A stretch of DNA of 50,535 nt. It comes from a bacterium. GTDB taxonomy: Bacteria; Patescibacteriota; Minisyncoccia; UBA6257; JAGOQP01. Position 1 is the first letter of the stretch. Each line of letters begins with the position of its first letter. The position numbers and the translations under genes are program-made. Shown here one piece after another: positions 16,277-50,535 of the stretch. Below the pieces are notes generated by a model that worked only from the letters and a program-made list of their open reading frames with translations, ran no database searches and was not told where the DNA came from. The stretch lies in NCBI GenBank assembly GCA_021801825.1, contig JAJYXK010000007.1, positions 90,509 through 141,043 of the forward strand, written 5' to 3'.

Positions 16277-16636
16277 TGCGCAAGTAGTTCAGCCCCGACG
16301 AGCGGAGCTGTCGGGGTCCCGACTGAAACGTCGGGATGGTATTATGAAGAAAGGATTTGTTTACATAATCCAAGATACTTATACTCATCATCTGTATATA
16401 GGAAGTACAGATGATGTGAATCGACGCCTACAACAACATAAGTATGGGCATACATATACTACAAGACGTATGCACGAAATAATTCTAATTTTTGTGCAAG
16501 AGTTTAAAACCATCACACAAGCAAGAAGAATAGAAATGTGGTTAAAGAAGCTAAAGCGCCGTGATTATATTGAAAAAATAATTAGTGATGGTAGTATAAG
16601 GAAAAAGTTTTAGTTTTAAATGCGCAAGTAGTTCAG
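16277..16636 (+). mobile_element. GIY-YIG homing-endonuclease-like cassette bracketed by a 16-bp duplication of the tRNA-Ile 5' end
   Basis: tgcgcaagtagttcag occurs at 16277-16292 and at 16621-16636. Between the copies lie two GC hairpins (16293-16316, 16317-16336) and the GIY-YIG ORF. Confidence 0.55.
16344..16613 (+). CDS. GIY-YIG nuclease family protein (catalytic domain only)
   Basis: GFVYIIQ ... LYIGSTDDVNRRLQQH ... ARRIEMWLKK matches the GIY-(x10)-YIG, Arg and Glu catalytic pattern. 89 aa. Confidence 0.85.
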   Translation: MKKGFVYIIQDTYTHHLYIGSTDDVNRRLQQHKYGHTYTTRRMHEIILIFVQEFKTITQARRIEMWLKKLKRRDYIEKIISDGSIRKKF

Positions 16637-16693
16637 TGGTAGAACGCTGTCCTGATAAGACAGAGGTCGAAGGTCCGATTCCTTCCTTGCGCA
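16622..16693 (+). tRNA. tRNA-Ile (GAT), no encoded CCA
   Basis: Acceptor GCGCAAG/CTTGCGC, anticodon arm CTGTC-CTGATAA-GACAG, T arm GAAGG-TCCGATT-CCTTC. Confidence 0.9.
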
Positions 16694-16707
16694 CACAGTT
16701 AATGATC

Positions 16708-16779
16708 GGGCGTTTAGCTCAGTGGTAGAGCGTTTCATTGACATTGAAAAGGTCGCAGGTTCAATCCCTGCAACGCCCA
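16708..16779 (+). tRNA. tRNA-Val (GAC), no encoded CCA
   Basis: Acceptor GGGCGTT/AACGCCC, anticodon arm TTTCA-TTGACAT-TGAAA, T arm GCAGG-TTCAATC-CCTGC. Confidence 0.9.
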
Positions 16780-16853
16780 CCGCCCAAATGTAAGTGATGA
16801 ATTAAGGAGATGGTTTTGATGTTAATCGGAGCATCAACCGTAGGAAACGAAAC

Positions 16854-18006: not shown

Positions 18007-18672
18007 ATGAGGCCCATGAGTAAAATTAATATAAAATGGTCATCAGGGTTCGCGTATGCGATAGGGCTTATTGCGACTGATGGTAATTTATCACCGGATG
18101 GAAGGCACATCTCGTTTACTTCAAAAGATAAAGAGCTTGTTGACTTGTTTTTGCGTTCACTGCATATTTCATCCTCTATTGGGAAAAAAGCTCGCGGAGG
18201 GGAGATTGAAAAGAAATATTTTGTGGTACAAATAGGAGACGTGTTATTTTACAAATTCCTTGTATCTATAGGTATAACACCAAAAAAATCAAAAACTATT
18301 AGCGAGGTTAAAGTTCCAAAAAAATATTTCTATGATTTTTTGAGAGGACACTTTGACGGGGATGGAACGTTTTATTCCTACTGGGATAAACGATGGAAAT
18401 CAAGTTTTATGTTTTATATGGAATTCATATCTGCGAGTGAAAATCATATACAGTGGTTGCAGAAAGCAATTCAAAAAGAAGTTAATATTCATGGTCACAT
18501 AACAAGGAACAAAAGGAATTCTGTTATACAACTAAAGTATGCGAAGGCAGAATCCTTGAAATTAATACGGAAAATGTATTATGATAACCGAGTTCCTTGC
18601 CTATCTCGCAAACGAGATAAAATAATGAATATATTAGCGCGGGTGGTGAAACTGGTAGACACGCCATCTTGA
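18007..18672 (+). CDS. LAGLIDADG homing endonuclease (double-motif)
   Basis: Motif 1 FAYAIGLIATDGNL and motif 2 FLRGHFDGDGTF. The last 12 codons and the TGA stop (18670-72) lie inside tRNA-Leu. Confidence 0.85.
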   Translation: MRPMSKINIKWSSGFAYAIGLIATDGNLSPDGRHISFTSKDKELVDLFLRSLHISSSIGKKARGGEIEKKYFVVQIGDVLFYKFLVSIGITPKKSKTISEVKVPKKYFYDFLRGHFDGDGTFYSYWDKRWKSSFMFYMEFISASENHIQWLQKAIQKEVNIHGHITRNKRNSVIQLKYAKAESLKLIRKMYYDNRVPCLSRKRDKIMNILARVVKLVDTPS

Positions 18673-36751: not shown

Positions 36752-37603
36752 ATGAAAAAGTTATTTACTTTTTCGCTATTGTTGTTGTTTGTAATACCAA
36801 TATTTGGACAGGATTTGCAATATGTTTTTTCAACCTTATCCGGCAGGCCTCAAATAATAAACCAGAGAATGTCTGGTGGTACTGATGGATTATACTATCG
36901 CCGCGTTGGCTTTACTGGAAATGCCGAAAGCAATGGACTTGGTAAGTTTGTTGCGGATGCAGAATTCAGCATAAAGCCGGTAAATATTCCAGCGAACACA
37001 TATATTTCGTTGGATATTAAATGGCCGTTTCAGATAGCGCCGGGGATAACCTTTTCTCTTATAGCACTTAATTCCTCGGGGACACAAGTTTCCTCAAAAA
37101 CAATCTCAGTCGGTAATAACGCATCAAGTTGGACAACAATATCGCTTGATCCCGTTACCGAAGTAATAACGGAGCTGCGGATTGTTATGAGTTCTTCTCA
37201 GCAGACATCAACATTTTTTGCCGCGGTTGAATTCGGAATGGATAATTTGAAATACAATTTTGCATCTCAGAATCCGGTCTCAATCTACTCATTCGAAAAT
37301 GAAGTTGTGACCGCAGTAGAGAAAACAGCATCCATACCGACAGCATTTAGGCTGGAACAGAACTATCCGAATCCATTTAATCCGACGACCACGATCAAAT
37401 TTCATATTCCATCTGCCGGCCATGTATCATTAAAAGTATATGACATTAATGGTAAGGAAATAGCTACTCTTACGGATCAGTATGTCCCCGCGGGGAACTC
37501 TTTGGTAGAAATAGACGCATCCAATCTTGCAAGCGGGATTTATTTCTATCGCTTACAAGCGGGGAACTTTACTGCTACAAAGAAAATGATTTTAATGAAA
37601 TAA
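36752..37603 (+). CDS. secreted protein with T9SS type A C-terminal sorting domain
   Basis: Signal peptide MKKLFTFSLLLLFVIPIFGQD. The last ~80 aa (LEQNYPNPFNPTTTIKFHIPSAGHVSLKVYDINGKEIATL...SGIYFYRLQAGNFTATKKMILMK) match the Por secretion tail pattern (TIGR04183). Confidence 0.85.
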   Translation: MKKLFTFSLLLLFVIPIFGQDLQYVFSTLSGRPQIINQRMSGGTDGLYYRRVGFTGNAESNGLGKFVADAEFSIKPVNIPANTYISLDIKWPFQIAPGITFSLIALNSSGTQVSSKTISVGNNASSWTTISLDPVTEVITELRIVMSSSQQTSTFFAAVEFGMDNLKYNFASQNPVSIYSFENEVVTAVEKTASIPTAFRLEQNYPNPFNPTTTIKFHIPSAGHVSLKVYDINGKEIATLTDQYVPAGNSLVEIDASNLASGIYFYRLQAGNFTATKKMILMK

Positions 37604-37636
37604 CGCAGGTCCTTGCCGAGGGACACAATGTTCGGC

Positions 37637-37663
37637 ACCCACCCTTTAGAGGTGGGTTTTTTG
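37637..37663 (+). terminator. intrinsic terminator
   Basis: acccacc-ctttaga-ggtgggt followed by tttttg. Confidence 0.75.
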
Positions 37664-37709
37664 TTTTATTATCTTTTTATATTGTGTATAATATATCTAT
37701 AATAAAATT

Positions 37710-38150
37710 ATGTTTATGCGTACTATATCAAAAGGATGGATGGGGGCATTAGTAGCTCTTGCCATCGTTATTATTATTGTCGTTGTATTATGGATTTTGG
37801 GAGTGTTTTCATCGTCATATTATGCGGTGTATCTCAATACCGGAGACCTCTACTTTGGTTCGTTATCTCCATTTTCTTCAACCCTAACCAATGTGTGGTA
37901 TATCCAAAAGGATGCGCAGACCCAACAGTTTGCGCTCGGTGATTTCTCAAAAGTAGTGTGGGGATCTTCGGGGAATTTAGAAATAAATTCTGATGCGGTT
38001 ATCTGGAAGACAAAATTGGCAAAGGATAGCAAGATAATTCCTGTTATCAAGGGAGAGAACCCTACTCCACAATCAGAAGGAATTACTCAACAGGCGCCTG
38101 CGCAGAATCAAGTATCACAACCAAGCGCAAGCACTACAAAAAAGGAATAG
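37710..38150 (+). CDS. single-pass membrane protein, hypothetical
   Basis: 146 aa. TM GALVALAIVIIIVVVLWILGV, small extracytoplasmic domain and a Gln/Pro-rich tail. Confidence 0.55.
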   Translation: MFMRTISKGWMGALVALAIVIIIVVVLWILGVFSSSYYAVYLNTGDLYFGSLSPFSSTLTNVWYIQKDAQTQQFALGDFSKVVWGSSGNLEINSDAVIWKTKLAKDSKIIPVIKGENPTPQSEGITQQAPAQNQVSQPSASTTKKE

Positions 38151-38167
38151 GCAACTTATAAATAGTC

Positions 38168-38201
38168 AAAAAACCATCCCGATATACTGGGATGGTTTTT
38201 T
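38168..38201. terminator. bidirectional intrinsic terminator
   Basis: aaaaaaccatccc-gatatact-gggatggtttttt between convergent genes. It marks the 3' end of the minus-strand module. Confidence 0.8.
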
Positions 38202-38219
38202 GATAAGAATATATAGTGA

Positions 38220-38735
38220 TTATTGAATTACTATTTTCCCCAAGGATTTTACACCAGAAGGACATAAGGTTCCACACGCAATATCAAAATTTCCTGTTTT
38301 TGTCGCGTCTATATTAATATTGGCAACTTCGTTTTGTTGAATGGACGGGATGGCTAATCCGAGACTAGAAGAAATCACATCAATTGCTTTTGTGGTTTTA
38401 TTGGTGATATTTAGTTGAACCATACTTTCTTTATGAAGCACCAATTGAAAAGGATCTAAGCCCGCGGCTCCAAGGTTTATGTTATAGATATAGAAGGGGG
38501 TTCCTTTCGAATCCGCAACAAGTTCTTGAATCGGGGTAGTGTAGGTGAGTTCGGCCTCTTTCTGTTTTTGTGTATCTTCGGGGGGAGCGGCTATAGTTTT
38601 TTCATTCTGTGGTGCTACTACTTCGTTTTGTGATAACGAGGGAGGAATGGTGTCCTTTGGGGTCGCAAGTAATACTATTGCTAATACAATGATAATCAAT
38701 ACGCCCAAAATGTAGAAAAATATTTTTTTGTTCAT
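38220..38735 (-). CDS. membrane-anchored cupredoxin-like domain protein (paralogue 4)
   Basis: TM anchor, Pro/Gln-rich linker, then a ~90-aa beta-sandwich ending NFDIACGTLCPSGVKSLGKIVIQ. Same plan as 41678, 42230 and 42796. Confidence 0.65.
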   Translation of the reverse strand: MNKKIFFYILGVLIIIVLAIVLLATPKDTIPPSLSQNEVVAPQNEKTIAAPPEDTQKQKEAELTYTTPIQELVADSKGTPFYIYNINLGAAGLDPFQLVLHKESMVQLNITNKTTKAIDVISSSLGLAIPSIQQNEVANINIDATKTGNFDIACGTLCPSGVKSLGKIVIQ

Positions 38736-38741
38736 AGTGTG

Positions 38742-41222
38742 TTAATTACCAAAGAATCCTTGAGTACAGTATTTTATATCCGCGGTTTTATTTGTTGCCG
38801 TTGAACATAATTTATTACTTACATCAAGAGAAGGTAATTTAGTTTTTATGCCGTTTGTACAACTTGCATCAGTTGCGCCTCCTAAACTCGCGTCATTATT
38901 ATACGAATAGAAGAATAACGTGTATTGGGCGGGGCACTTTAATCCATTCGCTGATTGATAGAATGTTCCCGTTCCTGTTCCCGTTGCCACAAGAATACAG
39001 TTACTGGTTCCATCTGCATCACAGCGCACCACATAATATCCATCTCCTGTTGCCGAAGAGATGCTACCAGAGATAATTGGTTTTCCTTCATTGCGTGTGG
39101 TCTCTCCAGGTGCTGCAATGGCTCCCGTTGATAATGCGGTAGGCGCCGAAACGCAGTTGGTCACGCTACAAGATCCATATCCATAAGTTCCTGACCACGA
39201 ACCGTTTGAGAGACAGCTTTGGCTTTCATTGGTGCAAGTATTTCCGCATGTCACAGAAGAAGATTGATACATAGTTCTGGTACTTGCCGAAGGTGGAGAA
39301 GCAAGAGAATAGGTTCCGTTAAATAATCCACTAGATTGACATGTCTGCGTTTCACTTCCAGCTCCATATGTTCCGCATCCCGAAGTAAGCGCGGTGTACA
39401 TGGTTCTAGTACTTGCCGAAGGTGGTGATGACAAAGAATATGTTCCATTAAACAATCCATTGGATAAACATGTCTGTGTTTCACTATTAGCTCCATACGT
39501 TCCACACGCGCTCATCGCGGCGGCATACATTGTGCGAGTTGTTGCCGATGGGGGAGAGGAGAGACTATAGCTTCCATTCCATGTGCCGCTTGATTGACAC
39601 GTTTGAGTTTCGTTATTTGATCCATACGTTCCACAGGCGCTGGTTGCTGCGGCATACATAGTTCTGGTACTTGCCGAAGGTGGAGAAGCAAGAGAATAGG
39701 TGCCACTCCATGACCCACCAGAGAGACAAGATTGCGATTCACTATTTGATCCATACGTTCCACAGGCGCTGGTTGCTGCAGCGTACATGGTTCTAGTACT
39801 TGCTGAAGGTGGCGATGACAAAGAATAGGTTCCGTTAAATAATCCACTAGATTGACATGTCTGCGTTTCACTTCCAGCTCCATATGTTCCGCATCCCGAA
39901 GTAAGCGCGGCATACATAGTACGGGTGGTATTTGAAGGGGGAGAGGTGAGTGTATAACTTCCGCTCCACACTCCATTAGTTTGGCAAGTTTGTCCTTGGC
40001 TGGAATATCCATACGTACCACATGCAGAAGTGTTTGCTGCATACGCGGTGCGTGTTGAGGCGGTGCATGAAGAACTTGAATAACTTCCCGACCACCCAGT
40101 ACCGCTTGCATTACAGGTTTGTGTTTCGCTTGCGCATGCGGTTCCACAACCAACCGCCGAGCTCTGGTACATAGTACGCGTTGCTCCTGGGGTGCAAACG
40201 GCTCCACAGGTTCCGGCAGATATGCTTGTTGAATAATAACATGACCCTCCAGAACAGTATCCTCCAGAATAATAGGTAGTACTACTACAATAACTTCCAC
40301 ACGTTACCCCAGCGCAGGGATCAACCGTACAAGATGAATACGCATAGGTTCCTGACCAACTTCCATTTGATTGACACGTTTGAGTTTGACTAGGACACGA
40401 TGCGCCCGATGATACTGAGTACATGGTTCTAGTGCTTGCTGCTGGAGGAGAAGAAAGTGTATAGCTACCTGACCACCCAGTCCCACTACCATTACAATAT
40501 TGAGTTTCACTATCTGGGGCACTTCCACACGCTACTGAGAGTGAAGCGTAACGGGTACGCGTTGCTCCTGGGGTGCAAACGGCTCCACAGGTTCCGGCAG
40601 ATATGCTTGTTGAATAATAACATGACCCTCCAGAACAGTATCCTCCAGAATAATAGGTAGTACTACTACAATAACTTCCACACGTTACCCCAGCGCAGGG
40701 ATCAACCGTACAAGATGAATACGCATAGGTTCCTGACCAACTTCCATTTGATTGACACGTTTGAGTTTGACTAGGACACGATGCGCCCGATGATACTGAG
40801 TACATGGTTCTAGTGCTTGCCGAAGGCGGCGACGTTAAGGTGTAACTTCCGGACCATGACCCGCTGTTATAACAAATTTGATTTTCACTATACGCGCCAT
40901 AGGTTCCACAAGCACTTGTTGCTGCTGCATATGCAGTTCTAGATGAGGTGGTATAAGTGGTATCAGTATAAGTCCCTGACCACCCAGTTCCACTACCATT
41001 ACAATATTGAGTTTCACTCGTGCCACTGTATCCACAAGCGACTGACAGGGTTCTATATCGTACGCGGCTATCCCCTGGAGTGCACACCGCGCCACACGTT
41101 CCTGCGGTTATTGAAGAAGAGGAATATCCGCATCCTCCCCCAGAACAATATCCATTATATAAATAGGTGGTACCAGAACAAGAAGATGAAGGACAGGCCG
41201 ATCCTGCAGATCTATAACACAC
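38742..41222 (-). CDS. hyper-cysteine Ser/Gly/Thr/Tyr-rich tandem-repeat surface protein, downstream reading frame
   Basis: 826-aa ORF with no signal peptide of its own. It continues the YCSGGxCYYS module pattern of the ORF ending at 41212. It contains 43-aa repeats TRTMY..CGTYG..E(T/S)Q(T/S)C..G.(W/F).G.Y.L.SPPSAS. Confidence 0.75.
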   Translation of the reverse strand: MCYRSAGSACPSSSCSGTTYLYNGYCSGGGCGYSSSSITAGTCGAVCTPGDSRVRYRTLSVACGYSGTSETQYCNGSGTGWSGTYTDTTYTTSSRTAYAAATSACGTYGAYSENQICYNSGSWSGSYTLTSPPSASTRTMYSVSSGASCPSQTQTCQSNGSWSGTYAYSSCTVDPCAGVTCGSYCSSTTYYSGGYCSGGSCYYSTSISAGTCGAVCTPGATRTRYASLSVACGSAPDSETQYCNGSGTGWSGSYTLSSPPAASTRTMYSVSSGASCPSQTQTCQSNGSWSGTYAYSSCTVDPCAGVTCGSYCSSTTYYSGGYCSGGSCYYSTSISAGTCGAVCTPGATRTMYQSSAVGCGTACASETQTCNASGTGWSGSYSSSSCTASTRTAYAANTSACGTYGYSSQGQTCQTNGVWSGSYTLTSPPSNTTRTMYAALTSGCGTYGAGSETQTCQSSGLFNGTYSLSSPPSASTRTMYAAATSACGTYGSNSESQSCLSGGSWSGTYSLASPPSASTRTMYAAATSACGTYGSNNETQTCQSSGTWNGSYSLSSPPSATTRTMYAAAMSACGTYGANSETQTCLSNGLFNGTYSLSSPPSASTRTMYTALTSGCGTYGAGSETQTCQSSGLFNGTYSLASPPSASTRTMYQSSSVTCGNTCTNESQSCLSNGSWSGTYGYGSCSVTNCVSAPTALSTGAIAAPGETTRNEGKPIISGSISSATGDGYYVVRCDADGTSNCILVATGTGTGTFYQSANGLKCPAQYTLFFYSYNNDASLGGATDASCTNGIKTKLPSLDVSNKLCSTATNKTADIKYCTQGFFGN
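39153..40055 (-). repeat. array of seven 129-bp (43-codon) in-frame tandem repeats
   Basis: Units begin TRT(M/A)Y. Two non-adjacent units share an identical 89-bp stretch (39306-39394 = 39822-39910, 516 bp apart). Confidence 0.85.
40175..40820 (-). repeat. 265-bp direct duplication with 381-bp period
   Basis: 40175-40439 and 40556-40820 read identically by eye, and both encode TRTMYSVSSGASCPSQTQTC...CGAVCTPGATRT. Confidence 0.85.
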
Positions 41223-41658
41223 CGCCAGAACAATATGATCCTGGATACGGCGTCATGCCGCTACAAAATCCATTAGCGCAGTTATCAGTAGAATAATAAC
41301 AAACACCATTAGAACAATATCCACTATAATATGCGGTAGATCCCGAACAGTAAGCGTTACACGTTACTCCTACGCAGTTATTCCACCCACAAGTTGGAGA
41401 GTTATACTGTACTACATAAGAAAGACAAGGACCGGTACAATTTGTATCGTCAGGGGTATAGCCATATAGTGTGTATCCCGAACAATAATTTGCTCCTTGG
41501 CAACCACCAGTACAGTTATTCCACAACGCAGCGTTCGTTTTAGAAACTGGCCCCATAAAAAACGAGGCCAGCATCACAAGAGCAAAAAAGACGACCGTAA
41601 AATATATTTTGCGTGTTCTGAATATAGACTCAGCTCCACGCAAAAGATTTGGTGTCAT
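41212..41658 (-). CDS. signal-anchored N-terminal part of the hyper-cysteine repeat protein (upstream reading frame)
   Basis: 148 aa. TM/signal YFTVVFFALVMLASFFMGPVSKTNA, then Cys-rich modules (CVGVTCNAYCSGSTAYYSGYCSNGVCYYS). The stop at 41212-14 overlaps the next ORF by 11 nt in another frame. Confidence 0.75.
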   Translation of the reverse strand: MTPNLLRGAESIFRTRKIYFTVVFFALVMLASFFMGPVSKTNAALWNNCTGGCQGANYCSGYTLYGYTPDDTNCTGPCLSYVVQYNSPTCGWNNCVGVTCNAYCSGSTAYYSGYCSNGVCYYSTDNCANGFCSGMTPYPGSYCSGGVL

Positions 41659-41677
41659 ATGGGTAAATAATTATTTT

Positions 41678-42175
41678 TTATTTAACAATGATTTTTCCTG
41701 AAGTAGTCTTTCCCGCAGAATCCTTCACGGTAAAAGTGAATTCTCCCGAAGTATTTTTCTGAGCATCAAATGGAACAAGAGCCGCCTGTCCCTTTTTGAG
41801 AGTAAGATTCATTTCAATAGGAGCGGCAAATGATACGCTATATTCGGCGTCAACCGCAGAAAATGCCAATCGTGCAACATCTCCTTTTGCTACAGTAGTG
41901 TTAACGGGAGTTAGAGCTCCTTTTTCCATCTGTATTTCATAGATTTTCCCAGTATCTTTTACTTCTTTGAATGCTCCTCCAACTGGTCCACTGGTGGTGG
42001 TGCTACTGGTAGGAGGTAGGGCACTTTCTCCTGAGGGGTTGTTTATTTCGGAGTTTGGAGTTTGTGAAGACGGAGATATAAAAACAAACAATGCAATAAT
42101 GATAATAACAATAACTGCCACCACAATAGTAATTGTCTTTGTGGACTTTGTTGATCCGGTATTTTCGCCGTTCAT
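41678..42175 (-). CDS. membrane-anchored cupredoxin-like domain protein (paralogue 3, Cys-less)
   Basis: TM TITIVVAVIVIIIIALFVFI, Ser/Thr/Pro linker, then a beta-sandwich (VAKGDVARLAFSAVDAEYSVSF ... GEFTFTVKD ... GKIIVK). Confidence 0.65.
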   Translation of the reverse strand: MNGENTGSTKSTKTITIVVAVIVIIIIALFVFISPSSQTPNSEINNPSGESALPPTSSTTTSGPVGGAFKEVKDTGKIYEIQMEKGALTPVNTTVAKGDVARLAFSAVDAEYSVSFAAPIEMNLTLKKGQAALVPFDAQKNTSGEFTFTVKDSAGKTTSGKIIVK

Positions 42176-42229
42176 ATATTTTTTTATTTAGTATTAATTA
42201 TATTTATAAGTGTTATTTTACACCATTTG

Positions 42230-42769
42230 TCATTGGATAACCAGAGTTCCTTGTGGATGTTGTGGGGGGCAGAGTTTTTCACATACAAAAGTGTATATTC
42301 CCGGGGGAATAGAGCGCGCATCAAAACCAAATAGAGTGGATCCTCCTTTTGCTGCCGCAATATACGCGCCGATAGGGGGTGCTATAGCAAGATCATAATC
42401 ACCATCAACGGCGGTGAATTGAAGACGAATAGTATCGGTTTTGCGTACAACAAGCGTGGAAGGAGAAAATCCAGACGAGGATTCCTTAAGGTAAAACAAT
42501 TTTACTTTTCGCGTGTCTTCTTTTACGGTAGAGGGAAGCATCTCATCAGGGTTAGAGAAAACATAGTCAGATGAAGATGTGTTTTCTAGGGGAGTAAACG
42601 AAGGAGTAGAAGATGATATTTGATTTATTATTTGAGCGGATGAGTTTACCATTGTAATTTCGGTACTAATAGTTTTGGTTTTTTGTAAAAAATACCAAAC
42701 TATCAAAAGACACCCGATAAAGAGTACAAGCGCTACTAATACAAGATTTTTTTTACTTATGGAACGCAT
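42230..42769 (-). CDS. membrane-anchored cupredoxin-like domain protein (paralogue 2)
   Basis: Start at MRSISKK (42769) removes overlap with the upstream gene. VRKTDTIRLQFTAVDGDYDLAI ... GIYTFVCEKLCPPQHPQGTLVIQ. Confidence 0.65.
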   Translation of the reverse strand: MRSISKKNLVLVALVLFIGCLLIVWYFLQKTKTISTEITMVNSSAQIINQISSSTPSFTPLENTSSSDYVFSNPDEMLPSTVKEDTRKVKLFYLKESSSGFSPSTLVVRKTDTIRLQFTAVDGDYDLAIAPPIGAYIAAAKGGSTLFGFDARSIPPGIYTFVCEKLCPPQHPQGTLVIQ

Positions 42770-42795
42770 GTTTTTACGTAATACAAAATACAGAC

Positions 42796-43353
42796 CTAAG
42801 GCATTCTCTTGGGAGCAACGATAATATAACCAATCGCCTTTGATTGAACGCCGCCGCATAGTTCACAGAAGTAGGTAAATTTGCCGGTTGCTTGAGCTTG
42901 AAACTCAAGAACTTTTGTTTCTCCCTTCTGCGCAGTCTGTTTCATATTGTAGTCGGGGAATATAATGTCGTACGCTTTATCGGTAGCGGTGAAATTAATA
43001 TGAACCGTATCTCCACTGTATGCTGCTATCGTTGGGGGGGTGAAGGTGTTTTCTTTTGCGGTGATATCAAATACTCGCAGAGTTGCGGAAACTCCTGGCG
43101 CGGCGGGTATGGATACTTTTGGAATCGCGATATCTTTTGGGGTGTTTGTTGCGCTTGCGTTTTGATCGGGAACTACTATATCAGAAGGGACTTCGTCCCT
43201 GAGAGGAATTTCTTGTGAGGGAGAAATTTGCTTATTGGCCATAGATCCAATGACGACACCAATAATAATTGCAATAACAATGACGACAACTCCTCCTATC
43301 ATTAGATACGTAGTCTTATTATTATGAGAAGAAAATAATTCTTTGAGATGCAT
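42796..43353 (-). CDS. membrane-anchored cupredoxin-like domain protein (paralogue 1)
   Basis: FDITAKENTFTPPTIAAYSGDTVHINFTATDKAYDIIF ... KGETKVLEFQAQATGKFTYFCELCGG ... GYIIV follows the Cupredoxin_1 strand pattern. Confidence 0.7.
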   Translation of the reverse strand: MHLKELFSSHNNKTTYLMIGGVVVIVIAIIIGVVIGSMANKQISPSQEIPLRDEVPSDIVVPDQNASATNTPKDIAIPKVSIPAAPGVSATLRVFDITAKENTFTPPTIAAYSGDTVHINFTATDKAYDIIFPDYNMKQTAQKGETKVLEFQAQATGKFTYFCELCGGVQSKAIGYIIVAPKRMP

Positions 43354-43367
43354 ATGATTTTATAATT

Positions 43368-46367
43368 TTAGAAGTTTGCATTAAATGCATTTCCATCATA
43401 GGTGCTATCAACGCCATTATAGAAGAATCCCACATAGTCGGTTTTTCCTACCGTAGTGGTAAGTGTGGGAGCAACCGCGCTACCCCAACGAACGCTTGCG
43501 GGCCAGGTAATCGTATAAGAGCCCGTGCCTCCTTGTTTGAGCACTAATTTATAATTTCCTCCGCTCTGACCGTTTGAAAAAGTAAAAGTAACATTTCCAG
43601 TTAGCACGCAATGTTGTGTGTTGCCCGCGTTCCAATCAATAGTGACTGCGCCTGTACAGTTTCCTTTGGAAACGAGTTCTGAGTAGAAAGCGCCATTAAT
43701 ATCTAATTTATGGGTGGGGGCGGTGGTTCCAATACCCAGATTACCATTTGTATCCAATGCCATTTTTGTGACCCCTCCTTGTCTAAAATAGTGTTCTGAG
43801 CCAGTTCCAGTATCATAGTAAATTCTTCCTGGTGCTACGAGCTGAACATGATTAGAGGCATCTAGTTTCAATATGTTTGATATATTTGTATCGTTCTTTC
43901 TTGCTTGTAGATATGTATTATTTGGTAATAATATATTTCCGTTCACTTCAAGAGCCACCACTGGCGTTGTTGTCCCAATTCCTACATTAGCGGGGAAAGA
44001 ATAATTTCCTCCTCCAGTATTTGCGCCAAATGCACCAGAAGATATATTCGGAGCACTCATGGTTCCTGATAGGGAGCCACTAAATGCAGTTGCGGTAACG
44101 GTTCCATTCACTTGAAGCGCAGTGCTGGGCGTGGTGGTTCCTATGCCGACGTTGCCAGCACCTGTTATAGTCATAACTGTATTTGTATCGACAGACTCAT
44201 CAGCCACAGTTCCTGTTTGCCACTGGAATGCAGGATTAGATCCAGTGACTGGGCTATGCATGGTTAAATTAAGATTACTATCTATTTTCAATCCTTGACG
44301 AACATTAGAAGAAATAACTCGTAGTCCAATACTGCCTCCAAAAGTTTGTGAATCATCCGATCCCATTGCAAAGAGTGAATTATAACCAGGGTTCGATAAG
44401 CCCGATGATTTTTTAATATATAAATTAGTTGCTGGCGCCGTAGTCCCAATGCCTAGCCGCCCCGTTCCAGTGAGAACCATTTTTTCTTTGAGTTGTGGAG
44501 CGTCGGGAGCATAGAAAGTTGAGAAACGCATTGTTCCTTCATTAGCCACGTCATTTGCTACAGATATGCGTCCGAGTTCATATGTTGAGTTAGTAAAACT
44601 CATATACGTTCCCCATCCTCCTGTGTTTTGAAGTCTTAGGGCTTCCAATACACTTCCACTTGCTCCTGCTAGGTTCACATGGAGAGGGGCTCCCGGACTT
44701 GTGGTTCCAATTCCAACTTTTCCAGTAGTGTAATAAATGTCGCTCCCCGAGGTAGTCCACTGACTACTTCCTCCAGTGCCCGCGGAAAGCGCTCCGCTTG
44801 CATCTACCATAACACTTCGTGTTCCGGTCCCCGCAAGTGCTCCGATGGTAGTGGTTCCTGTTTGGCTTACGCGAAACAAATCGGCGCTATCAGCAGAATT
44901 GCGTATAATAAAAGGAGAATAATCGCTTGAAATGATACGAACCCCTTCTGTTAAAGTTGTTGATGCTACATGTAATTTTGCAGCTGGCGCAGTAGTTCCA
45001 ATTCCAATATTCCCGCCATTAAAATAAGATGCGGCGTTCCCCTCAATGTCTACTTTCACCGTTCCTGAGCCGTCGCGCACCAAAACTCCTCCAGCATTAC
45101 TTGCACCACTATTTGCATAGACATTAAATATTTGCGTTCCAGAAGCATTTTTTATTCTAATTGCTTCTGCGGTAGTTGCGTCAATTCCGCTTATTTCTAA
45201 TTTTGCGGCAGGGTTTGAGGTCCCGATCCCAATATCTCCTCCGCTAGTCACTCTCATTTTTTCGGTCAGAGCGGTTCCGGTATAGGTAGAAAATGCAATG
45301 TTATATCCTGTTTTTACAATGCGCGCATCACCACCGCTCCAGTCTATGTTTTGGTCTCCAGTCATCGTGATACCTCCTCCGGTGAGGGTGAGCCGGTATC
45401 CTGCGCGCGCGGTTGTTTGCCCGATTGCAACATTGCCAGTGTTGTAATAAATATCGGATGAGGTGGTGGTCCATTGGCTCGCTCCTACTTGTGACCACGC
45501 GGTTTTACAATCCCCATTAATACACAAACCTCCTGAAGTATTTATTTGTCCCCCCTGCACATCAAGTTTGTATCCAGGGTTGATGGCGCCAATACCGATA
45601 TTAGTTCCATTATCATAGAGAAGAGTAGAGGCATTAATGGTGCTTGCGGTATTCCATTTCGCTACATAGTTTGCGCTTCCGCTTCCACTGACGCCTGCGA
45701 TGTTTGCCCATGAGGTGCGACAGTCACTTCCAAAACAAAGAGATCCCGCAGATACTTGTCCGGAGAATGATCCATCTTTCCAACGAGCCGATGGATATGT
45801 TCCGATATTATAAGAACCATCAGCGTTTGGAATAAGATCACTATCAAACGCAGCGGCGTTTACGCGTGTAATAGCGGAACGCAAAGAACGAGAAATACGA
45901 GTCCCTCCAGCTGATTGTTGTGAGATTGCAATATCAATTTGCACCACGTCTTTTGATGCGGGTTGCGCGAATCGGCGAAACTCAAGGTTATCAATAGAAA
46001 CTTTATCGTTGGTTATGGCGAGCGGAGTTCCACTTGCTCCTTGAGTAACGTAGATACGGTTATTTTGCAAATAAATAGTAGTGGGATTTTGCGCAGTAGT
46101 AGGCATTTGCAATACCAGAGTAGAACTGGAAACTCCTGAATCTCCCTGCACAATACTAGCGGTGCGCACGTATCGTTGAATGGTTTGAATGGCGAAGTTT
46201 AATTGCCCCGACACTTCATTTTGATTAAACTCGGATATTTGGGTATTGGTAATGGTGTTGAGCATCCCTCCAAAAATACCCGCAGAGATACCCAAAATAC
46301 CCAAATAGATAATAAGTTCGGCCAATGAGAAACCTTTGCGCTGTTGCAAAAATGATACACGCGTCAT
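43368..46367 (-). CDS. prepilin-type N-terminal domain fused to a ~960-aa tail-fibre-like repeat protein
   Basis: MTRVSFLQQRKG|FSLAELIIYLGILGI carries G-1, F+1, E+5 and a hydrophobic helix. There are at least eight hGIGTTxPxxxLxV repeats (e.g. NIGIGTTAPAAKLHV, KVGIGTTSPGAPLHV, NLGIGTTAPTHKLDI). Confidence 0.85.
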   Translation of the reverse strand: MTRVSFLQQRKGFSLAELIIYLGILGISAGIFGGMLNTITNTQISEFNQNEVSGQLNFAIQTIQRYVRTASIVQGDSGVSSSTLVLQMPTTAQNPTTIYLQNNRIYVTQGASGTPLAITNDKVSIDNLEFRRFAQPASKDVVQIDIAISQQSAGGTRISRSLRSAITRVNAAAFDSDLIPNADGSYNIGTYPSARWKDGSFSGQVSAGSLCFGSDCRTSWANIAGVSGSGSANYVAKWNTASTINASTLLYDNGTNIGIGAINPGYKLDVQGGQINTSGGLCINGDCKTAWSQVGASQWTTTSSDIYYNTGNVAIGQTTARAGYRLTLTGGGITMTGDQNIDWSGGDARIVKTGYNIAFSTYTGTALTEKMRVTSGGDIGIGTSNPAAKLEISGIDATTAEAIRIKNASGTQIFNVYANSGASNAGGVLVRDGSGTVKVDIEGNAASYFNGGNIGIGTTAPAAKLHVASTTLTEGVRIISSDYSPFIIRNSADSADLFRVSQTGTTTIGALAGTGTRSVMVDASGALSAGTGGSSQWTTSGSDIYYTTGKVGIGTTSPGAPLHVNLAGASGSVLEALRLQNTGGWGTYMSFTNSTYELGRISVANDVANEGTMRFSTFYAPDAPQLKEKMVLTGTGRLGIGTTAPATNLYIKKSSGLSNPGYNSLFAMGSDDSQTFGGSIGLRVISSNVRQGLKIDSNLNLTMHSPVTGSNPAFQWQTGTVADESVDTNTVMTITGAGNVGIGTTTPSTALQVNGTVTATAFSGSLSGTMSAPNISSGAFGANTGGGNYSFPANVGIGTTTPVVALEVNGNILLPNNTYLQARKNDTNISNILKLDASNHVQLVAPGRIYYDTGTGSEHYFRQGGVTKMALDTNGNLGIGTTAPTHKLDINGAFYSELVSKGNCTGAVTIDWNAGNTQHCVLTGNVTFTFSNGQSGGNYKLVLKQGGTGSYTITWPASVRWGSAVAPTLTTTVGKTDYVGFFYNGVDSTYDGNAFNANF

Positions 46368-46584
46368 ATATAGTATGTATACCTTCTAGTATATCGTATT
46401 TACTACTAATATACCACGAAAAATTGTGCACAACTTTAAAAAACTACTGCGCGCAAACGAAGAAAAGATTAATGCGTGCATATTACGAGAGATAGTGCAC
46501 AAAGATTATCTCACCTAGTATTTTTCTTGTGTTTTTTTAATAGTCATGAGATGATGGTGCCTATAGATAAAAATTCATCCTGTT

Positions 46585-49417: not shown

Positions 49418-50535
49418 ATGAAACCAGAACACGCGGTGATGAAAAAAAATATACACAGCACCCAATCTTTCACTCTTATTGAAATGCTCATTTCGGTAAC
49501 TATTCTCTCTATTATTACGGGGATGGGGGTGTTAAATCTTACCAGTTATAAAAATCGCCACAGTTTTCAGCTTGATGCAACAAATATTCTGGAAGGAGTA
49601 CGTAGTGCTCAAAATAAAGCAATTCTTGGAGAGCAAGGAACTGCGTGGGGAATTCGGTTTACTCCCAGTATCGGCTCAGGGGCTGATTATTATGAAGTTT
49701 TTTCAGGAGCGTCATACGCGACTTCTTCGGTAGTTGCTACACAAGCGTTAAGTCGTGCATCTAAATTTTCTAATCCTGCTTCTGGGTTTACTAAAACAAT
49801 TGTATTTTCAAAAGTGACAGGGATTCCTGATGTGGCACAATCAGTTGCTATTCAAATGGCAACTGGAAATGATTCTAGTATTGTTTCTATAAGCAAATCA
49901 GCATCTATAAATCAATTACCAGGGAAAGATCTTGTTGGCTATTGGCCAATGGATGAAGAATCGGGAACGAACGCATATGACGCATCAGGGAAAAGTTATA
50001 CGGGAATAATACAGGGGGCGGTGGCATGGCAATCATCATCGTTGGGTTTATGCAAGGTGGGGGGGTGTCTAAATTTCAACGGAAGCAGTAGTTATATAAA
50101 CGTGGGAGATAAACAAGATTTAAACTTAAGTTCTGGAGGAACTATTTCCGCATGGGTTAAAATTCCTTCATCATGGACAGGGGGAGCGTACTCAAGCATC
50201 GCAGGAAAGGGGGCGAGTGCCGGATGGGATACTGACGGGTGGAGTCTATTTGCTTTTTCAGACAATAGAATTGGGATTGGAATAAGGAACGGAACTCTCA
50301 CGGTGTCTCCTTCATTCACCAACACAACAAAAGACCAATGGACTCATATTGTAGGAACGTGGGATGGAACGACAATACGGCTGTATCAAGATGGTGTTCA
50401 AAAAACATCTGCATCACAAACCATAACTCCTCCACAAACCAGTACGAGTTTTATTATAGGAAGAGGGCCTTCTAATCATTATTTTGGAGGACTTATTGAT
50501 GATGTTCGTGTATACAATCGTGCGCTTGCAACCAG
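49418..50535 (+). CDS. prepilin-type N-terminal domain protein with LamG-like domain (3' end outside the window)
   Basis: Open to the window edge, so absent from the ORF track. TQS|FTLIEMLISVTILSII. LVGYWPMDEESGTNAYDASG ... FGGLIDDVRVYNRAL is paralogous to 9144-10421. An alternative start lies at 49439. Confidence 0.8.
   Translation, partial: MKPEHAVMKKNIHSTQSFTLIEMLISVTILSIITGMGVLNLTSYKNRHSFQLDATNILEGVRSAQNKAILGEQGTAWGIRFTPSIGSGADYYEVFSGASYATSSVVATQALSRASKFSNPASGFTKTIVFSKVTGIPDVAQSVAIQMATGNDSSIVSISKSASINQLPGKDLVGYWPMDEESGTNAYDASGKSYTGIIQGAVAWQSSSLGLCKVGGCLNFNGSSSYINVGDKQDLNLSSGGTISAWVKIPSSWTGGAYSSIAGKGASAGWDTDGWSLFAFSDNRIGIGIRNGTLTVSPSFTNTTKDQWTHIVGTWDGTTIRLYQDGVQKTSASQTITPPQTSTSFIIGRGPSNHYFGGLIDDVRVYNRALAT

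Follow-up and report, generated by a model that had tools for sequence, protein, structure and literature searches.

A putative Paceibacterota surface-fibre locus combines a pilin-headed, MAT-type fibre with membrane-anchored cupredoxin-like proteins

On the minus strand of the window (the whole 50,535-nt stretch of DNA analysed), seven tightly packed ORFs occupy positions 38220-46367 (Table 1), in agreement with the coordinates, strand and spacing given by an earlier sequence-only reading, and they represent six genes, the Cys-rich gene being split by the loss of 2 nt in a GT run. Because the gaps are only 6-54 nt (14, 26, 54, 19 and 6 nt from G1 to G6), no strong terminator-like hairpin was found within the block and a hairpin with a 15-bp stem lies at its end, the genes can be read as one operon. 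The hairpin, which had been proposed as a bidirectional terminator and indeed has A/T runs on either side, marks the end of both the operon and a convergent gene. Upstream of G1, the divergent intergenic region at 46368-46584 (217 nt, 31% GC), formerly proposed as a promoter region, yielded no consensus promoter in a sigma-70 scan, but it contains a promoter- or operator-like block, which is kept 5' of the orthologous fibre genes in the relatives L002 and L004 and degenerate in L006 and L011. A 23-nt direct repeat is also present (46411-46433 and 46480-46502).

Table 1. Coordinates of the fibre locus and neighbouring features in the window
Feature	Position	Strand	Description
X146	37710-38150	+	146-aa TM-anchored protein; convergent; module-associated in relatives
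Bidirectional intrinsic terminator hairpin	38166-38203	both	15-bp stem, 6 GC pairs, flanking A/T runs
G6	38220-38735	-	171 aa; Cx3C, most divergent paralogue; Cupredoxin_1 32.4 bits, over cut-off
G5 (whole)	38742-41658	-	972 aa if frameshift repaired
G5b	38742-41222	-	826 aa
G5a	41212-41658	-	148 aa
G4	41678-42175	-	165 aa; paralogue without Cys; Cupredoxin_1 21.9 bits, below cut-off; BLAST to G2/G3 E 1e-8 to 1e-11
G3	42230-42859 (mechanical ORF); 42230-42769 (probable real gene)	-	179 aa from M31; Cx3C paralogue; Cupredoxin_1 16 bits, below cut-off; BLAST to G2/G4 E 1e-9 to 1e-11
G2	42796-43353	-	185 aa; TM anchor, S/T/P-rich linker, CxxCG cupredoxin-like domain; Cupredoxin_1 38.3 bits, over cut-off
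G1	43368-46367	-	999 aa
G1 C-terminal tip domain, residues 901-999	43371-43667	-	PHROG matches; without S74 chaperone domain
G1 fibre shaft	43698-45596	-	eight GIGTTxPxxxLxV capping-loop repeats; MAT/tail-fibre-like modules, mosaic, fast-evolving
G1 pilin module, residues 13 to ~175	45843-46331	-	long alpha-1 helix and beta-sheet
G1 leader peptide, residues 1-12	46332-46367	-	MTRVSFLQQRKG; ends at prepilin-peptidase site G↓FSLAE
Promoter-/operator-like block 5' of G1	46375-46436	-	GTTGTGCACA ... ACGrTATACTA; conserved in relatives
Second prepilin-type gene	49418-50535	+	N_methyl and LamG; runs past window end

G1 is a modular type IV pilin, in which a prepilin leader and a pilin fold are fused to a fibre shaft. 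The prepilin motif is canonical by eye (Gly-1, Phe+1, Glu+5), as had been claimed, while its Pfam N_methyl score of 18.6 bits falls short of the 21.2 cut-off; G12, F13 and E17 are invariant among G1 orthologues and the free-standing pilin of L009. In the PDB, the N-terminal profile matches the N-termini of type IV pilins, Geobacter PilA among them (E 1e-3), AlphaFold2 predicts a helix at residues 15-69 and strands at 72-165 (pLDDT ~70-92), the module is homologous to the separate 307-aa pilin gene of L009 (E 8e-32), and homologues of the head carry N_methyl, PulG or FimT annotations or scores. The predicted fold, the pilin homologues and the fibre homology described below all agree with the pilin-headed fibre first proposed. 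Residues 1-300 keep 95% identity to L002 despite a dS of ~1.5 (dN 0.039), suggesting very strong purifying selection on the pilin module, in its whole globular domain as well as its TM helix. The pilin head itself appears to be a clade-specific addition, confined to this small clade.

A regex search counted eight GIGTxxPxxxLxV copies in the shaft, in line with the "at least eight" fibre repeats noted earlier, and this repeat matches the capping-loop motif published for trimeric beta-helices (V-G-G/N-pi-x-x-P-x-x-x-L; PMC10769870). The shaft matches the Bdellovibrio MAT fibres 8oml (E 3e-5), 8ond and 8ojn in the PDB, PHROG tail-fibre families match G1 with E 4e-23 and 1e-17, and residues 905-994 match PHROG tail-fibre and tail-assembly families (E ~1e-9), while no Peptidase_S74 was found in a Pfam scan of G1. 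Judged by these similarities, G1 is a member of the published MAT/S74 tail-fibre lineage rather than an orphan. The sequence-only reading knew of no described system with this gene combination; the accessory family is indeed undescribed, but fibres of this lineage and large accessory domains on pilins are known. Identity of the shaft to L002 is 59% overall, with blocks down to 12-42%, whereas the tip is 100% identical to L002 (dS 0.11) and 95% identical to L004 (dS saturated). Tip and G2 share an unusually low dS (0.11-0.125), compared with 1.5-2 for the head, LepA and SecA, which we read as similar to a phage tip-plus-chaperone cassette. No confident model of shaft or tip was obtained from the AlphaFold2 monomer, in which the shaft pLDDT is below 50, as would be expected for an obligate trimer, and Foldseek with this model returned nothing useful.

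G2, G3, G4 and G6 are TM-anchored cupredoxin-like paralogues, each composed of a single TM anchor, a long flexible S/T/P-rich stalk of 50-90 aa and a terminal beta-sandwich. G2 and G6 pass the gathering cut-off of Pfam Cupredoxin_1 (PF13473; 27 bits), and G3 and G4 fall below it, yet the latter two are BLAST paralogues of G2 (1e-8 to 1e-11), so the proposal of four paralogues stands. The real start of G3 is probably M31 at 42769 rather than 42859; its orthologues (181 and 183 aa) begin at the equivalent Met. Identities to L002 are 96% for G2, 71.5% for G3, 93% for G4 and 100% for G6 (dS 0.009), and part of the conservation of G2, G4 and G6 reflects recent recombination. The G2 family profile matches the cupredoxin domains of NirK 2dv6 (5e-8), nitrosocyanin, COX II CuA and CupA in the PDB. 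However, the canonical His/His/Met ligands are replaced in G2 (where Tyr, Gly and Ala take their places), G3 and G6, whereas G4 lacks Cys altogether. In the G2 family profile, C163, C166, Y128, D125 and D129 do not vary, and H118 and M137 hardly do. The family comprises 190 clusters (50% identity, E<=1e-30); CxxCG is carried by 135 of its 149 top representatives, and a C..H..M copper-ligand pattern by none of the 149. Metal binding or redox chemistry is conceivable at the invariant CxxC. None of the four small proteins matches any PHROG family.

G5 is a secreted Cys/Ser/Thr/Gly/Tyr-rich repeat protein; its 14 A-type modules (~43 aa each) are accompanied by B-type Cys modules, and its C-terminal ~140-180 aa form a unique region. 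It had been described as signal-anchored and hyper-Cys; the modular composition is as described, but Cys accounts for 74 of the 972 residues (7.6%), and the N-terminus (..TNA↓AL) looks like a cleavable Sec signal rather than an anchor. The suspected frameshift, a 2-nt deletion in the GT run at ~41212-41227 (within ggcggtGTGTGTtataga), is real: restoring one GT gives YCSGGVCYRS, which agrees with the repeat and with the intact 892-aa ORF in L002, and the identical frameshift in a second contig (strain L001), which is 99.26% identical to the window, shows that it is no assembly error. No Pfam, PHROG or NCBIfam match was found for G5, and Foldseek gave none with its AlphaFold2 model (mean pLDDT 53.6), in which the A modules are predicted as beta-hairpins. 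Modules of this type are also present on the N_methyl-headed proteins P0162, P0169 and P0176. A G5-type gene was found in three genomes only, and G5 is a clade-specific addition of adhesin-like build.

The fibre gene, three cupredoxin-like genes and the Cys-rich gene lie beside LepA in the same order in L002 and L004, with the final cupredoxin-like gene also kept in L002 and the contig end of L004 falling within its Cys-rich gene. The earlier reading had proposed a single co-directional module and suggested searching other Patescibacteria for its order, which recurs in full in these two Paceibacterota genomes and in part in two more (L006 and L011). Of the G2-family clusters, 33 could be assessed, having at least 1 kb of sequence to either side, and in 32 of these a capping-loop fibre gene lies on the same strand no more than 5 kb from the G2-family gene; the fibre is directly adjacent in 24, and fibres occupy both flanks in nine. 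In 10 G2-family clusters, small prepilin genes occur no more than 8 kb away. L009 encodes the pilin module, a G2-like protein, X146 and a Sec-type fibre in separate adjoining genes, which was taken as Rosetta-stone evidence for the core linkage. L085 encodes a 342-aa protein, in which two capping-loop modules are fused to a cupredoxin domain, within an array of four cupredoxin genes beside fibres; since the L085 cupredoxins accompany an S74-bearing fibre and retain the copper ligands, the idea of a substitute chaperone for S74-less fibres is weakened, and metal or redox chemistry is still conceivable. Since the majority of the fibres that accompany G2-family genes carry Sec signals instead of pilin heads, the role of G2-type proteins cannot depend on a pilus. 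In the more distant Parcubacterium L084, a pilin-fibre occupies the same LepA-SecA position with no recognisable cupredoxin neighbour. G2 similarity does correlate with tip family, but phylogeny confounds the relation. Rather than a seven-gene unit, the evolutionary core is the fibre together with a G2-type cupredoxin.

X146 is 98.6% identical to its L002 counterpart, which occupies the same position, and in L009 a homologue (E 4e-16) separates the G2-like gene from the fibre gene; no family match was found in Pfam, PHROG or NCBIfam searches. On the other side, the gene from 49418 is part of an adjoining pilin/PilM cluster, being 75% identical (tblastn) to a 379-aa N_methyl and Laminin_G_3 protein of L002; its counterparts in L002 and L004 are followed by a LamG protein, a ~150-aa protein and a 502-aa protein (PilM_2 in L004). 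By synteny, the PilM gene would fall just past the window end. No PilB/C/D/T gene was found among the window ORFs scanned, as expected from the earlier claim that the window holds no pilus ATPase, platform or prepilin peptidase gene.

Among described systems, G1 resembles the MAT (mosaic adhesive trimer) fibres Bd1334, Bd2133 and Bd3182 of Bdellovibrio bacteriovorus (8OML, 8OND, 8OJN; PMC10769870, in which pilins and operons go unmentioned) in sequence, in the capping-loop motif repeated on beta-helix modules, in its length of ~1000 aa and in its mosaic shaft, especially the "NS74" subgroup, which is without the C-terminal S74 chaperone, and both bearers are bacteria that need to recognise another cell. 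Unlike MAT fibres, for which tip diversity is described, G1 begins with a type IV pilin module, has its tip most conserved and its shaft most variable, and belongs to a CPR bacterium instead of a proteobacterial predator. We know of no cupredoxin partner for MAT fibres.

Large C-terminal grafts on a pilin module are also borne by PilB/PilC of S. sanguinis and PilX1/PilX2 of TM7x, for which pilus-tip placement and adhesion were proposed or shown (PMC8179133, PMC9934059, PMC11623550), and PilX2 is needed for efficient host binding in Saccharibacteria TM7x, also a Patescibacterium (PMC11623550). The host binding mediated by Saccharibacteria minor pilins that bear large C-terminal domains is thus a precedent for the locus described here. 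The word "cupredoxin" does not occur in PMC11623550, where no cupredoxin-like accessory genes are reported for modular pilins. Those grafts are globular (vWA, lectin, beta-jelly-roll, beta-propeller), whereas that of G1 is an elongated ~800-aa phage-type fibre, presumably trimeric.

In phages, fibre tips form cassettes with downstream accessory or chaperone genes, such as T4 gp37-gp38 and the Mu/P2-type fibre-Tfa pairs. Similarly, a small accessory gene (G2) lies directly 3' of the fibre gene here, the shafts are mosaic, and tip and G2 have a common recombination history (dS ~0.11-0.125, as against 1.4-2 elsewhere). However, the accessories of this locus are membrane-anchored, cupredoxin-fold and PHROG-unmatched, occur in arrays of up to four, and have a putative chaperone role. 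Their sequence similarity to type 1 copper proteins, COX II/NosZ CuA and S. pneumoniae CupA is at the fold level (PF13473; 2dv6, 1iby, COX II, 2mry); like COX II and CupA they are membrane-anchored and outward-facing, and like CuA they retain the Cys position, with a second Cys close by. Unlike canonical cupredoxins, they are without the His/His/Met set, they carry C-x2-C-G-G (G2), C-x3-C (G3, G6) or no Cys (G4), and they are encoded beside fibres instead of genes for respiration or copper homeostasis.

From the homologies, architecture, synteny and co-occurrence of the module, we lean, with confidence slightly above even, towards a conserved Paceibacterota surface-fibre locus with a pilin-mounted MAT-type fibre and membrane-tethered cupredoxin-fold accessory factors. 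The conserved CPR module, pilin-headed fibre and cupredoxin-fold paralogues of the sequence-only reading are retained; the fibre is no orphan, the seven-gene unit is not the core, and the small proteins prove to be without canonical copper ligands. G1 would consist of a ~700-aa shaft and a ~100-aa conserved tip on a class III (prepilin) signal and pilin fold. A prepilin peptidase would cleave it after Gly12, its chains would form a trimer (n=3) via the beta-helical shaft, and a type IV filament would carry this trimer, most plausibly as a tip complex, whereby the invariant tip would face the host or prey surface; the lack of pilus ATPase, platform and peptidase genes among the scanned window ORFs counts against such mounting. 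Because the G2 family adjoins such fibres throughout Paceibacteria, the cupredoxin-like proteins are most likely fibre accessory factors, not electron carriers, and may help the fibre to assemble or dock outside the cytoplasm, perhaps at its tip, where G2-type proteins might serve as assembly factor, dock or co-adhesin. The module is probably gear with which this tiny, symbiotic-type bacterium grips a host cell, and in it the accessory cupredoxin-like family is new, while modular pilins and MAT fibres are already known kinds.

An unlikely alternative that nevertheless deserves weight is that the pilin head is only a PilD-processed membrane anchor or short pseudopilus stub, the fibre projecting straight from the envelope, as paralleled by T2SS pseudopilins and archaeal "bindosome" proteins with class III signals. 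The lack of assembly genes among the scanned window ORFs would fit, as would the ordinary Sec signals of most homologous fibres adjoining G2-type genes, which presumably project from the envelope in other Paceibacteria, the steric awkwardness of a bulky trimer within a filament, and the names pseudopilin PulG or FimT given to some homologues by JGI. Against this, the pilin module is strongly selected, globular domain included, pilin and PilM genes cluster right beside the locus, small prepilin genes lie near other G2-family members, and large-domain modular pilins do assemble into pili in S. sanguinis, while those of TM7x are candidates for host binding. Slightly more doubtful is that the cupredoxin-like proteins are short-range adhesins or co-receptors parallel to the fibre, neither assembling nor anchoring it: the anchor, stalk and beta-sandwich have the build of a displayed binding domain, a short fibre of L085 has its cupredoxin domain at the C-terminus, where the tip lies, and several divergent paralogues occur per locus, but G2, G4 and G6 are far better conserved than the shaft, which is unusual for host-facing adhesins, and the constant place directly behind the fibre is reminiscent of fibre-plus-accessory cassettes in phages.

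CPR cupredoxins have been interpreted as electron shuttles, proposed to feed NirK (PMC5581439), and the small proteins might be true copper/redox proteins (electron carriers or CupA-like Cu(I) chaperones) beside fibres by coincidence, which we consider very improbable. The Pfam, NCBIfam and PDB similarities (including NosZ CuA), the conserved CxxC, H118 and M137, a G2-like gene in L007 followed by a DsbD_TM gene and a WCPHC thioredoxin-like gene, and the H..C..H(..M) retained in L085 and L008 paralogues speak for it; against it stand the replaced ligands, the fibre-cupredoxin fusion, nirK and respiratory genes not being identified among the window ORFs scanned, and a fibre association in 32 of 33 clusters that is far from coincidence. 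It is scarcely credible that the block is a decayed tail-fibre module from a prophage or tailocin instead of the cellular surface-fibre locus favoured here, even though G1 matches phage tail families, a recombination tract and mosaicism are present, and relatives carry inserted mobile genes (Y1_Tnp in L004, toxin-antitoxin-like genes in L006). No capsid, terminase, baseplate, sheath or integrase gene was identified among the window ORFs scanned, the small proteins lack PHROG matches, G1 bears a prepilin signal, each of the other products has a TM anchor or Sec-type signal, and the locus is flanked by the housekeeping genes LepA and SecA, with synteny conserved across genomes in which LepA is 87% identical and dS saturated.

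The seven consecutive minus-strand open reading frames between 38220 and 46367 that the sequence-only reading had grouped together are all present in the ORF list, and they are tabulated below with the neighbouring features. The orthologues of G3 (181 and 183 aa) begin at the equivalent of its Met31, and the real start of G3 is therefore probably 42769, which abolishes the overlap with G2 and leaves intergenic gaps of 14, 26, 54, 19, and 6 nt along the module. The terminator proposed for the end of the run was recovered as a 15-bp hairpin with A and T runs on either side, located 16 nt past G6 and also serving the convergent gene X146. Promoter-like sites in a sigma-70 scan were not above chance (19 found versus 21.7 expected), and the sole minus-strand match near G1 overlaps the G1 start codon. 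As well, no recognisable Shine-Dalgarno motif precedes any of the six module start codons (38735-46397), where the upstream 30 nt are merely AT-rich. The intergenic region between LepA and G1 carries a 23-nt direct repeat (78% identity) containing the palindrome-like TTGTGCACAA, and a block GTTGTGCACA...ACGrTATACTA is conserved upstream of orthologous fibre genes; the block is a candidate promoter or operator.

Positions of the module genes, neighbouring genes, and DNA signals in the window
Feature	Positions	Strand	Length	Remark
G1	43368-46367	-	999 aa	pilin-headed fibre
G2	42796-43353	-	185 aa	cupredoxin-like
G3	42230-42859	-	209 aa (ORF)	cupredoxin-like
G4	41678-42175	-	165 aa	cupredoxin-like
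G5a	41212-41658	-	148 aa	Cys-rich, split gene
G5b	38742-41222	-	826 aa	Cys-rich, split gene
G6	38220-38735	-	171 aa	cupredoxin-like
X146	37710-38150	+	146 aa	TM-anchored, convergent
Por_Secre_tail gene	36752-37603	+	283 aa	secreted protein
LAGLIDADG-like ORF	18007-18672	+	221 aa	between the L19 gene and pheS
Prepilin + LamG gene	9144-10421	+		
Prepilin + LamG gene	49418-50535	+		to window end
Terminator hairpin	38166-38203			
23-nt direct repeat	46411-46433, 46480-46502			LepA/G1 intergenic
Conserved upstream block	46375-46436			

The N-terminus of the G1 product reads MTRVSFLQQRKG/FSLAELIIYLGILGISAGIF, with the putative cleavage context MTRVSFLQQRKG/FSLAE, and the prepilin motif claimed for it stands, as the short basic leader, Gly-1, Phe+1, and Glu+5 are all present. 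G12, F13, and E17 do not vary among six aligned sequences, those of five orthologues and of a free-standing 307-aa pilin from a more distant genome. The Pfam N_methyl model (PF07963) scored 18.6 bits on G1, under its cut-off of 21.2; it is above cut-off in related pilin-headed fibres such as P0030, and also in P0169, a homologue of the Cys modules of G5. Moreover, the G1 head profile matches type IV pilin N-termini in the PDB (Geobacter and others; 7tgg, 9egp) at E about 1e-3. AlphaFold2, run on the monomer with a 50-sequence alignment, packed a long helix (15-69) on strands 72-165 at pLDDT of about 70-92, which is a predicted pilin ("lollipop") fold. Save for the sub-threshold N_methyl score, the sequence and predicted fold of the head thus appear to be those of a type IV pilin. 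Outside the pilin module the pLDDT lies below 50, which is compatible with a shaft that is an obligate trimer and is no evidence for one. A Foldseek search of the full-length model against the PDB returned no match at E<=0.001, and its matches were judged meaningless because the model is of low quality beyond the pilin part.

The eight GIGTxxPxxxLxV repeats reported for G1 were borne out at residues 258-890. Capping loops on the trimeric beta-helix, with the consensus V-G-G/N-pi-x-x-P-x-x-x-L, are common to the mosaic adhesive trimer (MAT) fibres of Bdellovibrio and to phage fibres with the Peptidase_S74 (S74) chaperone domain (PMC10769870), and the motif previously described as a fibre repeat is exactly this loop. 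G1 matches the solved Bdellovibrio MAT fibres Bd1334, Bd2133, and Bd3182 (8oml, E 3.2e-5; 8ond, E 4.5e-4; 8ojn) as well as phage tail-fibre families (phrog_9942, E 3.7e-23; phrog_18345, E 1.1e-17), and its residues 905-994 match tail-fibre and tail-assembly families in PHROG at about 1e-9. Pfam found no Peptidase_S74 (PF13884) in G1, which assigns it to the subgroup without that domain (NS74); S74 is likewise absent from five partner fibres of other loci, which lack any Pfam domain. The G1 shaft therefore resembles MAT and S74-type fibres in both motif and homology, without the S74 domain, whereas the Bdellovibrio MATs begin with a Sec signal and a conserved beta-rich N-terminal domain of ~130 aa where G1 has its pilin module. 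By sequence and predicted fold, G1 is a type IV pilin of the modular kind, to which a MAT or tail-fibre shaft and an almost invariant tip are joined. Among fibres whose genes lie upstream of a G2-type gene, the commonest tip (in 17 of 24 non-redundant loci, L008, L029, L035, and L038 among them) ends in a conserved ...GTIIGKALE.L...GEI.VLVNLQ domain, which matches nothing in Pfam and is unlike the G1 tip.

The G2, G3, G4, and G6 products are built alike: a TM helix at the N-terminus is joined by 50-90 aa of low-complexity linker to a C-terminal domain of ~90 aa. The match to Cupredoxin_1 (PF13473, cut-off 27) that had been suggested for all four held for G2 (38.3 bits) and G6 (32.4 bits), and fell short for G4 (21.9 bits) and G3 (16.4 bits). 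G2, G3, and G4 match each other by BLAST (E 1e-8 to 1e-11), which makes G3 and G4 paralogues of G2, G6 being more distant, and PHROG returned nothing for the four. A G2-family profile built from 40 proteins matched the cupredoxin domains of copper nitrite reductases (2dv6, 5.5e-8), nitrosocyanin, the CuA domain of COX II (2e-4), and CupA (4e-3) in the PDB. The copper ligands, sought as His ... Cys-x(n)-His-x(n)-Met or as the CuA pattern C-x3-C-x3-H-x2-M, are nevertheless not there. In the alignment to 2dv6, Tyr128 of G2 takes the place of the upstream His, Gly that of the loop His, and Ala that of the Met, so that only the Cys and a second Cys are retained (C-x2-C-G-G); G3 and G6 have C-x3-C, with a following His in G3 that its orthologues do not keep, and G4 has no Cys. 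The small proteins have the fold of a cupredoxin but not its copper ligand set. Searched exhaustively, the G2 profile recovered 190 clusters (50% identity) at E<=1e-30 and 1430 at 1e-10, and the top 149 representatives include CxxCG in 135, a TM-like N-terminus in 131, and C..H..M in none. This number of clusters, with the retention of CxxCG, marks the G2 family as a sizeable, distinct, uncharacterised subfamily, whose two Cys may form a disulfide or act as a redox pair, or may bind a metal as thiolates. In one homologous locus (L007, 10591-12569), a gene for a DsbD_TM/CcdA-like membrane protein directly follows a G2-like gene, and a small thioredoxin-like protein with WCPHC is encoded two genes further along, hinting that the CxxC of the family may be redox-managed.

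The G5 gene is split by a frameshift, as had been suspected. The junction reads ggcggtGTGTGTtataga, and one added GT gives ...YCSGGVCYRS..., a reading in line with the repeat inside the protein and with the unbroken 892-aa orthologue of L002 (...CSGGSCMRT...). The same lesion occurs in the contig of another assembly, L001, which differs from the window at 64 of 8757 nt (99.26% identity); an assembly error was therefore ruled out, and the lesion is real in at least two strains. It is a 2-nt (GT) deletion within 41212-41227, in a gene with dN/dS of about 0.18 against L002, and the split G5 is taken either for a pseudogene of recent origin or for a phase variant in a short dinucleotide tract. The description of G5 as a hyper-cysteine protein needs tempering: it is Cys-rich, as 74 of its 972 residues are Cys (7.6%), and its composition is dominated by Ser, Thr, Gly, Ala, and Tyr. 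After a putative Sec-type signal come B-type Cys modules (..YCSGGxCYYS..AGTCGAVCTPG), 14 A-type modules of ~43 aa ([ST]R[TV]xY..C..ExQxC..G(W/F)(S/N)G(S/T)Y..SPPSAS), and a unique C-terminal region of ~140-180 aa. No family in Pfam, PHROG, or NCBIfam matched G5. The AlphaFold2 model of G5b is mostly of low confidence (mean pLDDT 53.6), with the A modules predicted as beta-hairpins, and had no significant structural neighbour in Foldseek; its best match, a Sushi-like CRF-receptor ectodomain at E 4.3, was discounted. G5-like modules are present in other Patescibacteria proteins (P0162, P0169, P0176, P0164), some with N_methyl heads, fn3, or discoidin domains, and thus recur as a building block among CPR surface proteins. 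As part of the module, a G5 orthologue was seen in no locus other than those of the window, L002, and L004.

The gene order, which the sequence-only reading had suggested looking for in other Patescibacteria MAGs, is identical in L002 (GCA_021839425.1). There, LepA is followed divergently by the fibre (70% identical to G1), cupredoxins of 185, 181, and 164 aa, the Cys-rich protein of 892 aa, and a cupredoxin of 171 aa, and then by a convergent 146-aa gene and the Por_Secre_tail gene. L004 (one contig sampled three times, as L004, L013, and L022) encodes a fibre of 1742 aa and keeps the module order as far as the contig end; an IS200-type Y1_Tnp gene is inserted between its LepA and fibre genes (9022-9771). 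In L006 and L011, the fibre, G2-type, and G3-type genes are kept with insertions between them, and in L006 23S_rRNA_IVP and nucleotidyltransferase toxin-antitoxin-like genes lie between the fibre and cupredoxin genes (14436-16810). The more distant L084 (AP024682.1) has a 641-aa pilin-headed fibre at the same LepA-SecA position, followed by a Cys-containing 267-aa protein, with no recognisable cupredoxin.

The core association is that of a fibre with a G2-type cupredoxin. Scans with the G2 profile yielded 10 loci in GTDB species representatives and 64 in JGI metagenomes, which together with the loci fetched earlier formed 58 clusters at 90% identity, 33 of them with at least 1 kb on both sides. 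A same-strand gene for a capping-loop fibre lies within 5 kb in 32 of these 33 clusters; it is directly adjacent (<= 700 nt) in 24, and fibre genes occur on both sides in nine. A second cupredoxin-like gene was seen in 18 clusters and a prepilin-type ORF within 8 kb in 10. Pilin-headed fibres are confined to the clade of the window, the other G2-linked fibres beginning with Sec signals. L009 has four separate genes side by side, for a 307-aa pilin module containing one capping loop, a G2-like protein, an X146 homologue, and a 1106-aa fibre of the Sec type. Conversely, L085 (GCA_043955425.1, 17631-20907) has four consecutive cupredoxin genes, the last encoding a 342-aa protein with a signal peptide, two capping-loop modules (BLAST to G1, E 6e-9), and a C-terminal cupredoxin domain. 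This fission and this fusion tie the pilin, fibre, and cupredoxin parts together. The cupredoxin call on the fusion relies on a precomputed Pfam match and our own HMM; an hhalign comparison with the G2 profile aligned the wrong region at 5% probability and was discarded. Copper-type ligands, H..C..H(..M), are kept in three of the four L085 proteins. The array adjoins an S74 fibre and a Gly_rich/fibrinogen-like protein, and the presence of an S74 fibre beside four cupredoxin genes weakens the idea that the cupredoxin partners specifically substitute for a missing S74 chaperone.

Comparison with L002 separated three parts of G1, as tabulated below. The tip is also 95% identical to that of L004, where dS is saturated, and the overall pattern indicates that head and tip are tightly constrained and that the shaft is mosaic. 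Nucleotide identity to L002, about 74% in the flanking housekeeping genes, reaches 95.3% over 37337-40469 (3.1 kb; end of the Por gene, X146, G6, and the C-terminal half of G5) and 82.7% over 40800-43745 (2.9 kb; the N-terminal part of G5, G4, G3, G2, and the G1 tip). The dS values of 0.009 in G6, 0.02 in X146, 0.108 in the tip, and 0.125 in G2, against 1.5-2.0 in the G1 head, LepA, and SecA, confirm a recent exchange; this is a recent recombination tract between the window and L002. These values suggest that the G1 tip and G2 move together, much as fibre tips travel with their accessory genes in phages. Similarity of G2 proteins does track the upstream tip family (67.9 versus 59.7%, p 3e-15), but this covariation is confounded by phylogeny and was not taken as proof.

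Divergence between the window and L002
Region	Amino acid identity	dN	dS
G1 head (1-300)	95%	0.039	1.5
G1 shaft (301-900)	59%, blocks 12-42% with indels	0.379	1.4
G1 tip (901-999)	100%	0	0.108
LepA	87%	0.100	2.0
SecA	82%	0.140	1.7

We propose that G1 would be cut by prepilin peptidase, trimerise via its shaft, and be displayed by a type IV filament, with the filament tip as the probable site. Known modular pilins carry adhesive modules, to which this display of G1 would be alike, and trimeric minor pilins such as CofB cap pili. The invariant G1 tip might bind a host-surface ligand, the TM-tethered partners might act on the fibre outside the membrane in folding and trimerisation or in docking, and G5 might add a second adhesin-like component, currently disrupted. 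What was observed is that a MAT/tail-fibre homologue bears a prepilin head, that its cupredoxin-fold partners lack the canonical copper ligands, that the genes are packed as tightly as in an operon and keep their synteny, and that fibre and partner are linked genome-wide. Alternatively, the pilin head might serve only as a membrane or pseudopilus anchor, and the small partner proteins might be independent short adhesins. Their CxxC site might also carry out metal or redox chemistry, a reading favoured by the DsbD_TM and WCPHC genes of L007 and by literature in which CPR cupredoxins are taken as electron carriers to NirK. A prophage origin was rejected because phage structural genes are lacking and the housekeeping synteny is stable.

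Tentatively, and with low confidence in the whole, we suggest that Paceibacteria possess an undescribed, widespread host-contact system, in which phage/MAT-type trimeric fibres rely, for assembly or docking outside the cytoplasm, on a dedicated CxxC "ex-cupredoxin" partner tethered to the membrane, and in which the fibre of this clade has been captured by a type IV pilin, placing a trimeric tail-fibre at the pilus tip. If true, this would provide the first example of a type IV filament bearing a receptor-binding fibre of phage type. Modular pilins have been published, as have MAT fibres; in the literature searched, neither the pilin-MAT fusion nor the CxxC partner family was found, and searches for Patescibacteria type IV pili with cupredoxin and for CPR pilin with tail fiber gave nothing relevant. 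The G2 family is an undescribed accessory family, with at least about 190 clusters at 50% identity whose members are almost always beside such fibres. Apart from a few cultured Saccharibacteria, little is known of how ultrasmall CPR/Patescibacteria find their hosts and keep hold of them, and the locus offers concrete, testable candidates for a host-contact apparatus in the much larger, uncultured Paceibacteria lineage. Should the link prove functional, type IV pili, phage receptor-binding proteins, and predator fibres would become connected, CPR "cupredoxin" annotations now read as electron carriers would be reassigned, and the conserved tip and partner would provide handles for host-range prediction and host-receptor pull-downs.

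Genes for PilB, PilC, PilD, and PilT were not found among the ORFs scanned in the 50.5-kb window, in keeping with the initial reading. The two further prepilin and LamG genes encode additional modular pilins of the same genome, LamG being a concanavalin-like lectin domain. In syntenic relatives, the 49418 gene is followed by a LamG protein, a ~150-aa protein, and a 502-aa protein, the last scoring as PilM_2 in L004, so that a PilM_2 gene and pilin genes adjoin the locus. X146 is 98.6% identical in L002 and had no family match in Pfam, PHROG, or NCBIfam; since its homologue in L009 (E 4e-16) sits between the G2-like and fibre genes, it probably belongs to the module. The 146-aa gene adjoining PilM in L002 proved not to be homologous to it.

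The window is otherwise a chromosomal housekeeping stretch encoding topoisomerase I, RelA/SpoT, DprA, PheS, GAPDH, a TrpRS/TyrRS-type synthetase, EF-G, SecA, MreB, ribosomal proteins, and LepA, and the module proteins have close homologues in MAGs that bear the names Candidatus Paceibacterota, Paceibacterales, Colwellbacteria, and Wolfebacteria. The 36752-37603 protein ends in a Por_Secre_tail sorting domain (55 bits); the window showed no component of a T9SS, and neither an outer membrane nor a T9SS is known from CPR bacteria. Homologues of this protein adjoin fibre loci in L002 (50% identity), L007, and L020. Finally, a free-standing LAGLIDADG homing-endonuclease-like ORF lies between the L19 gene and pheS.
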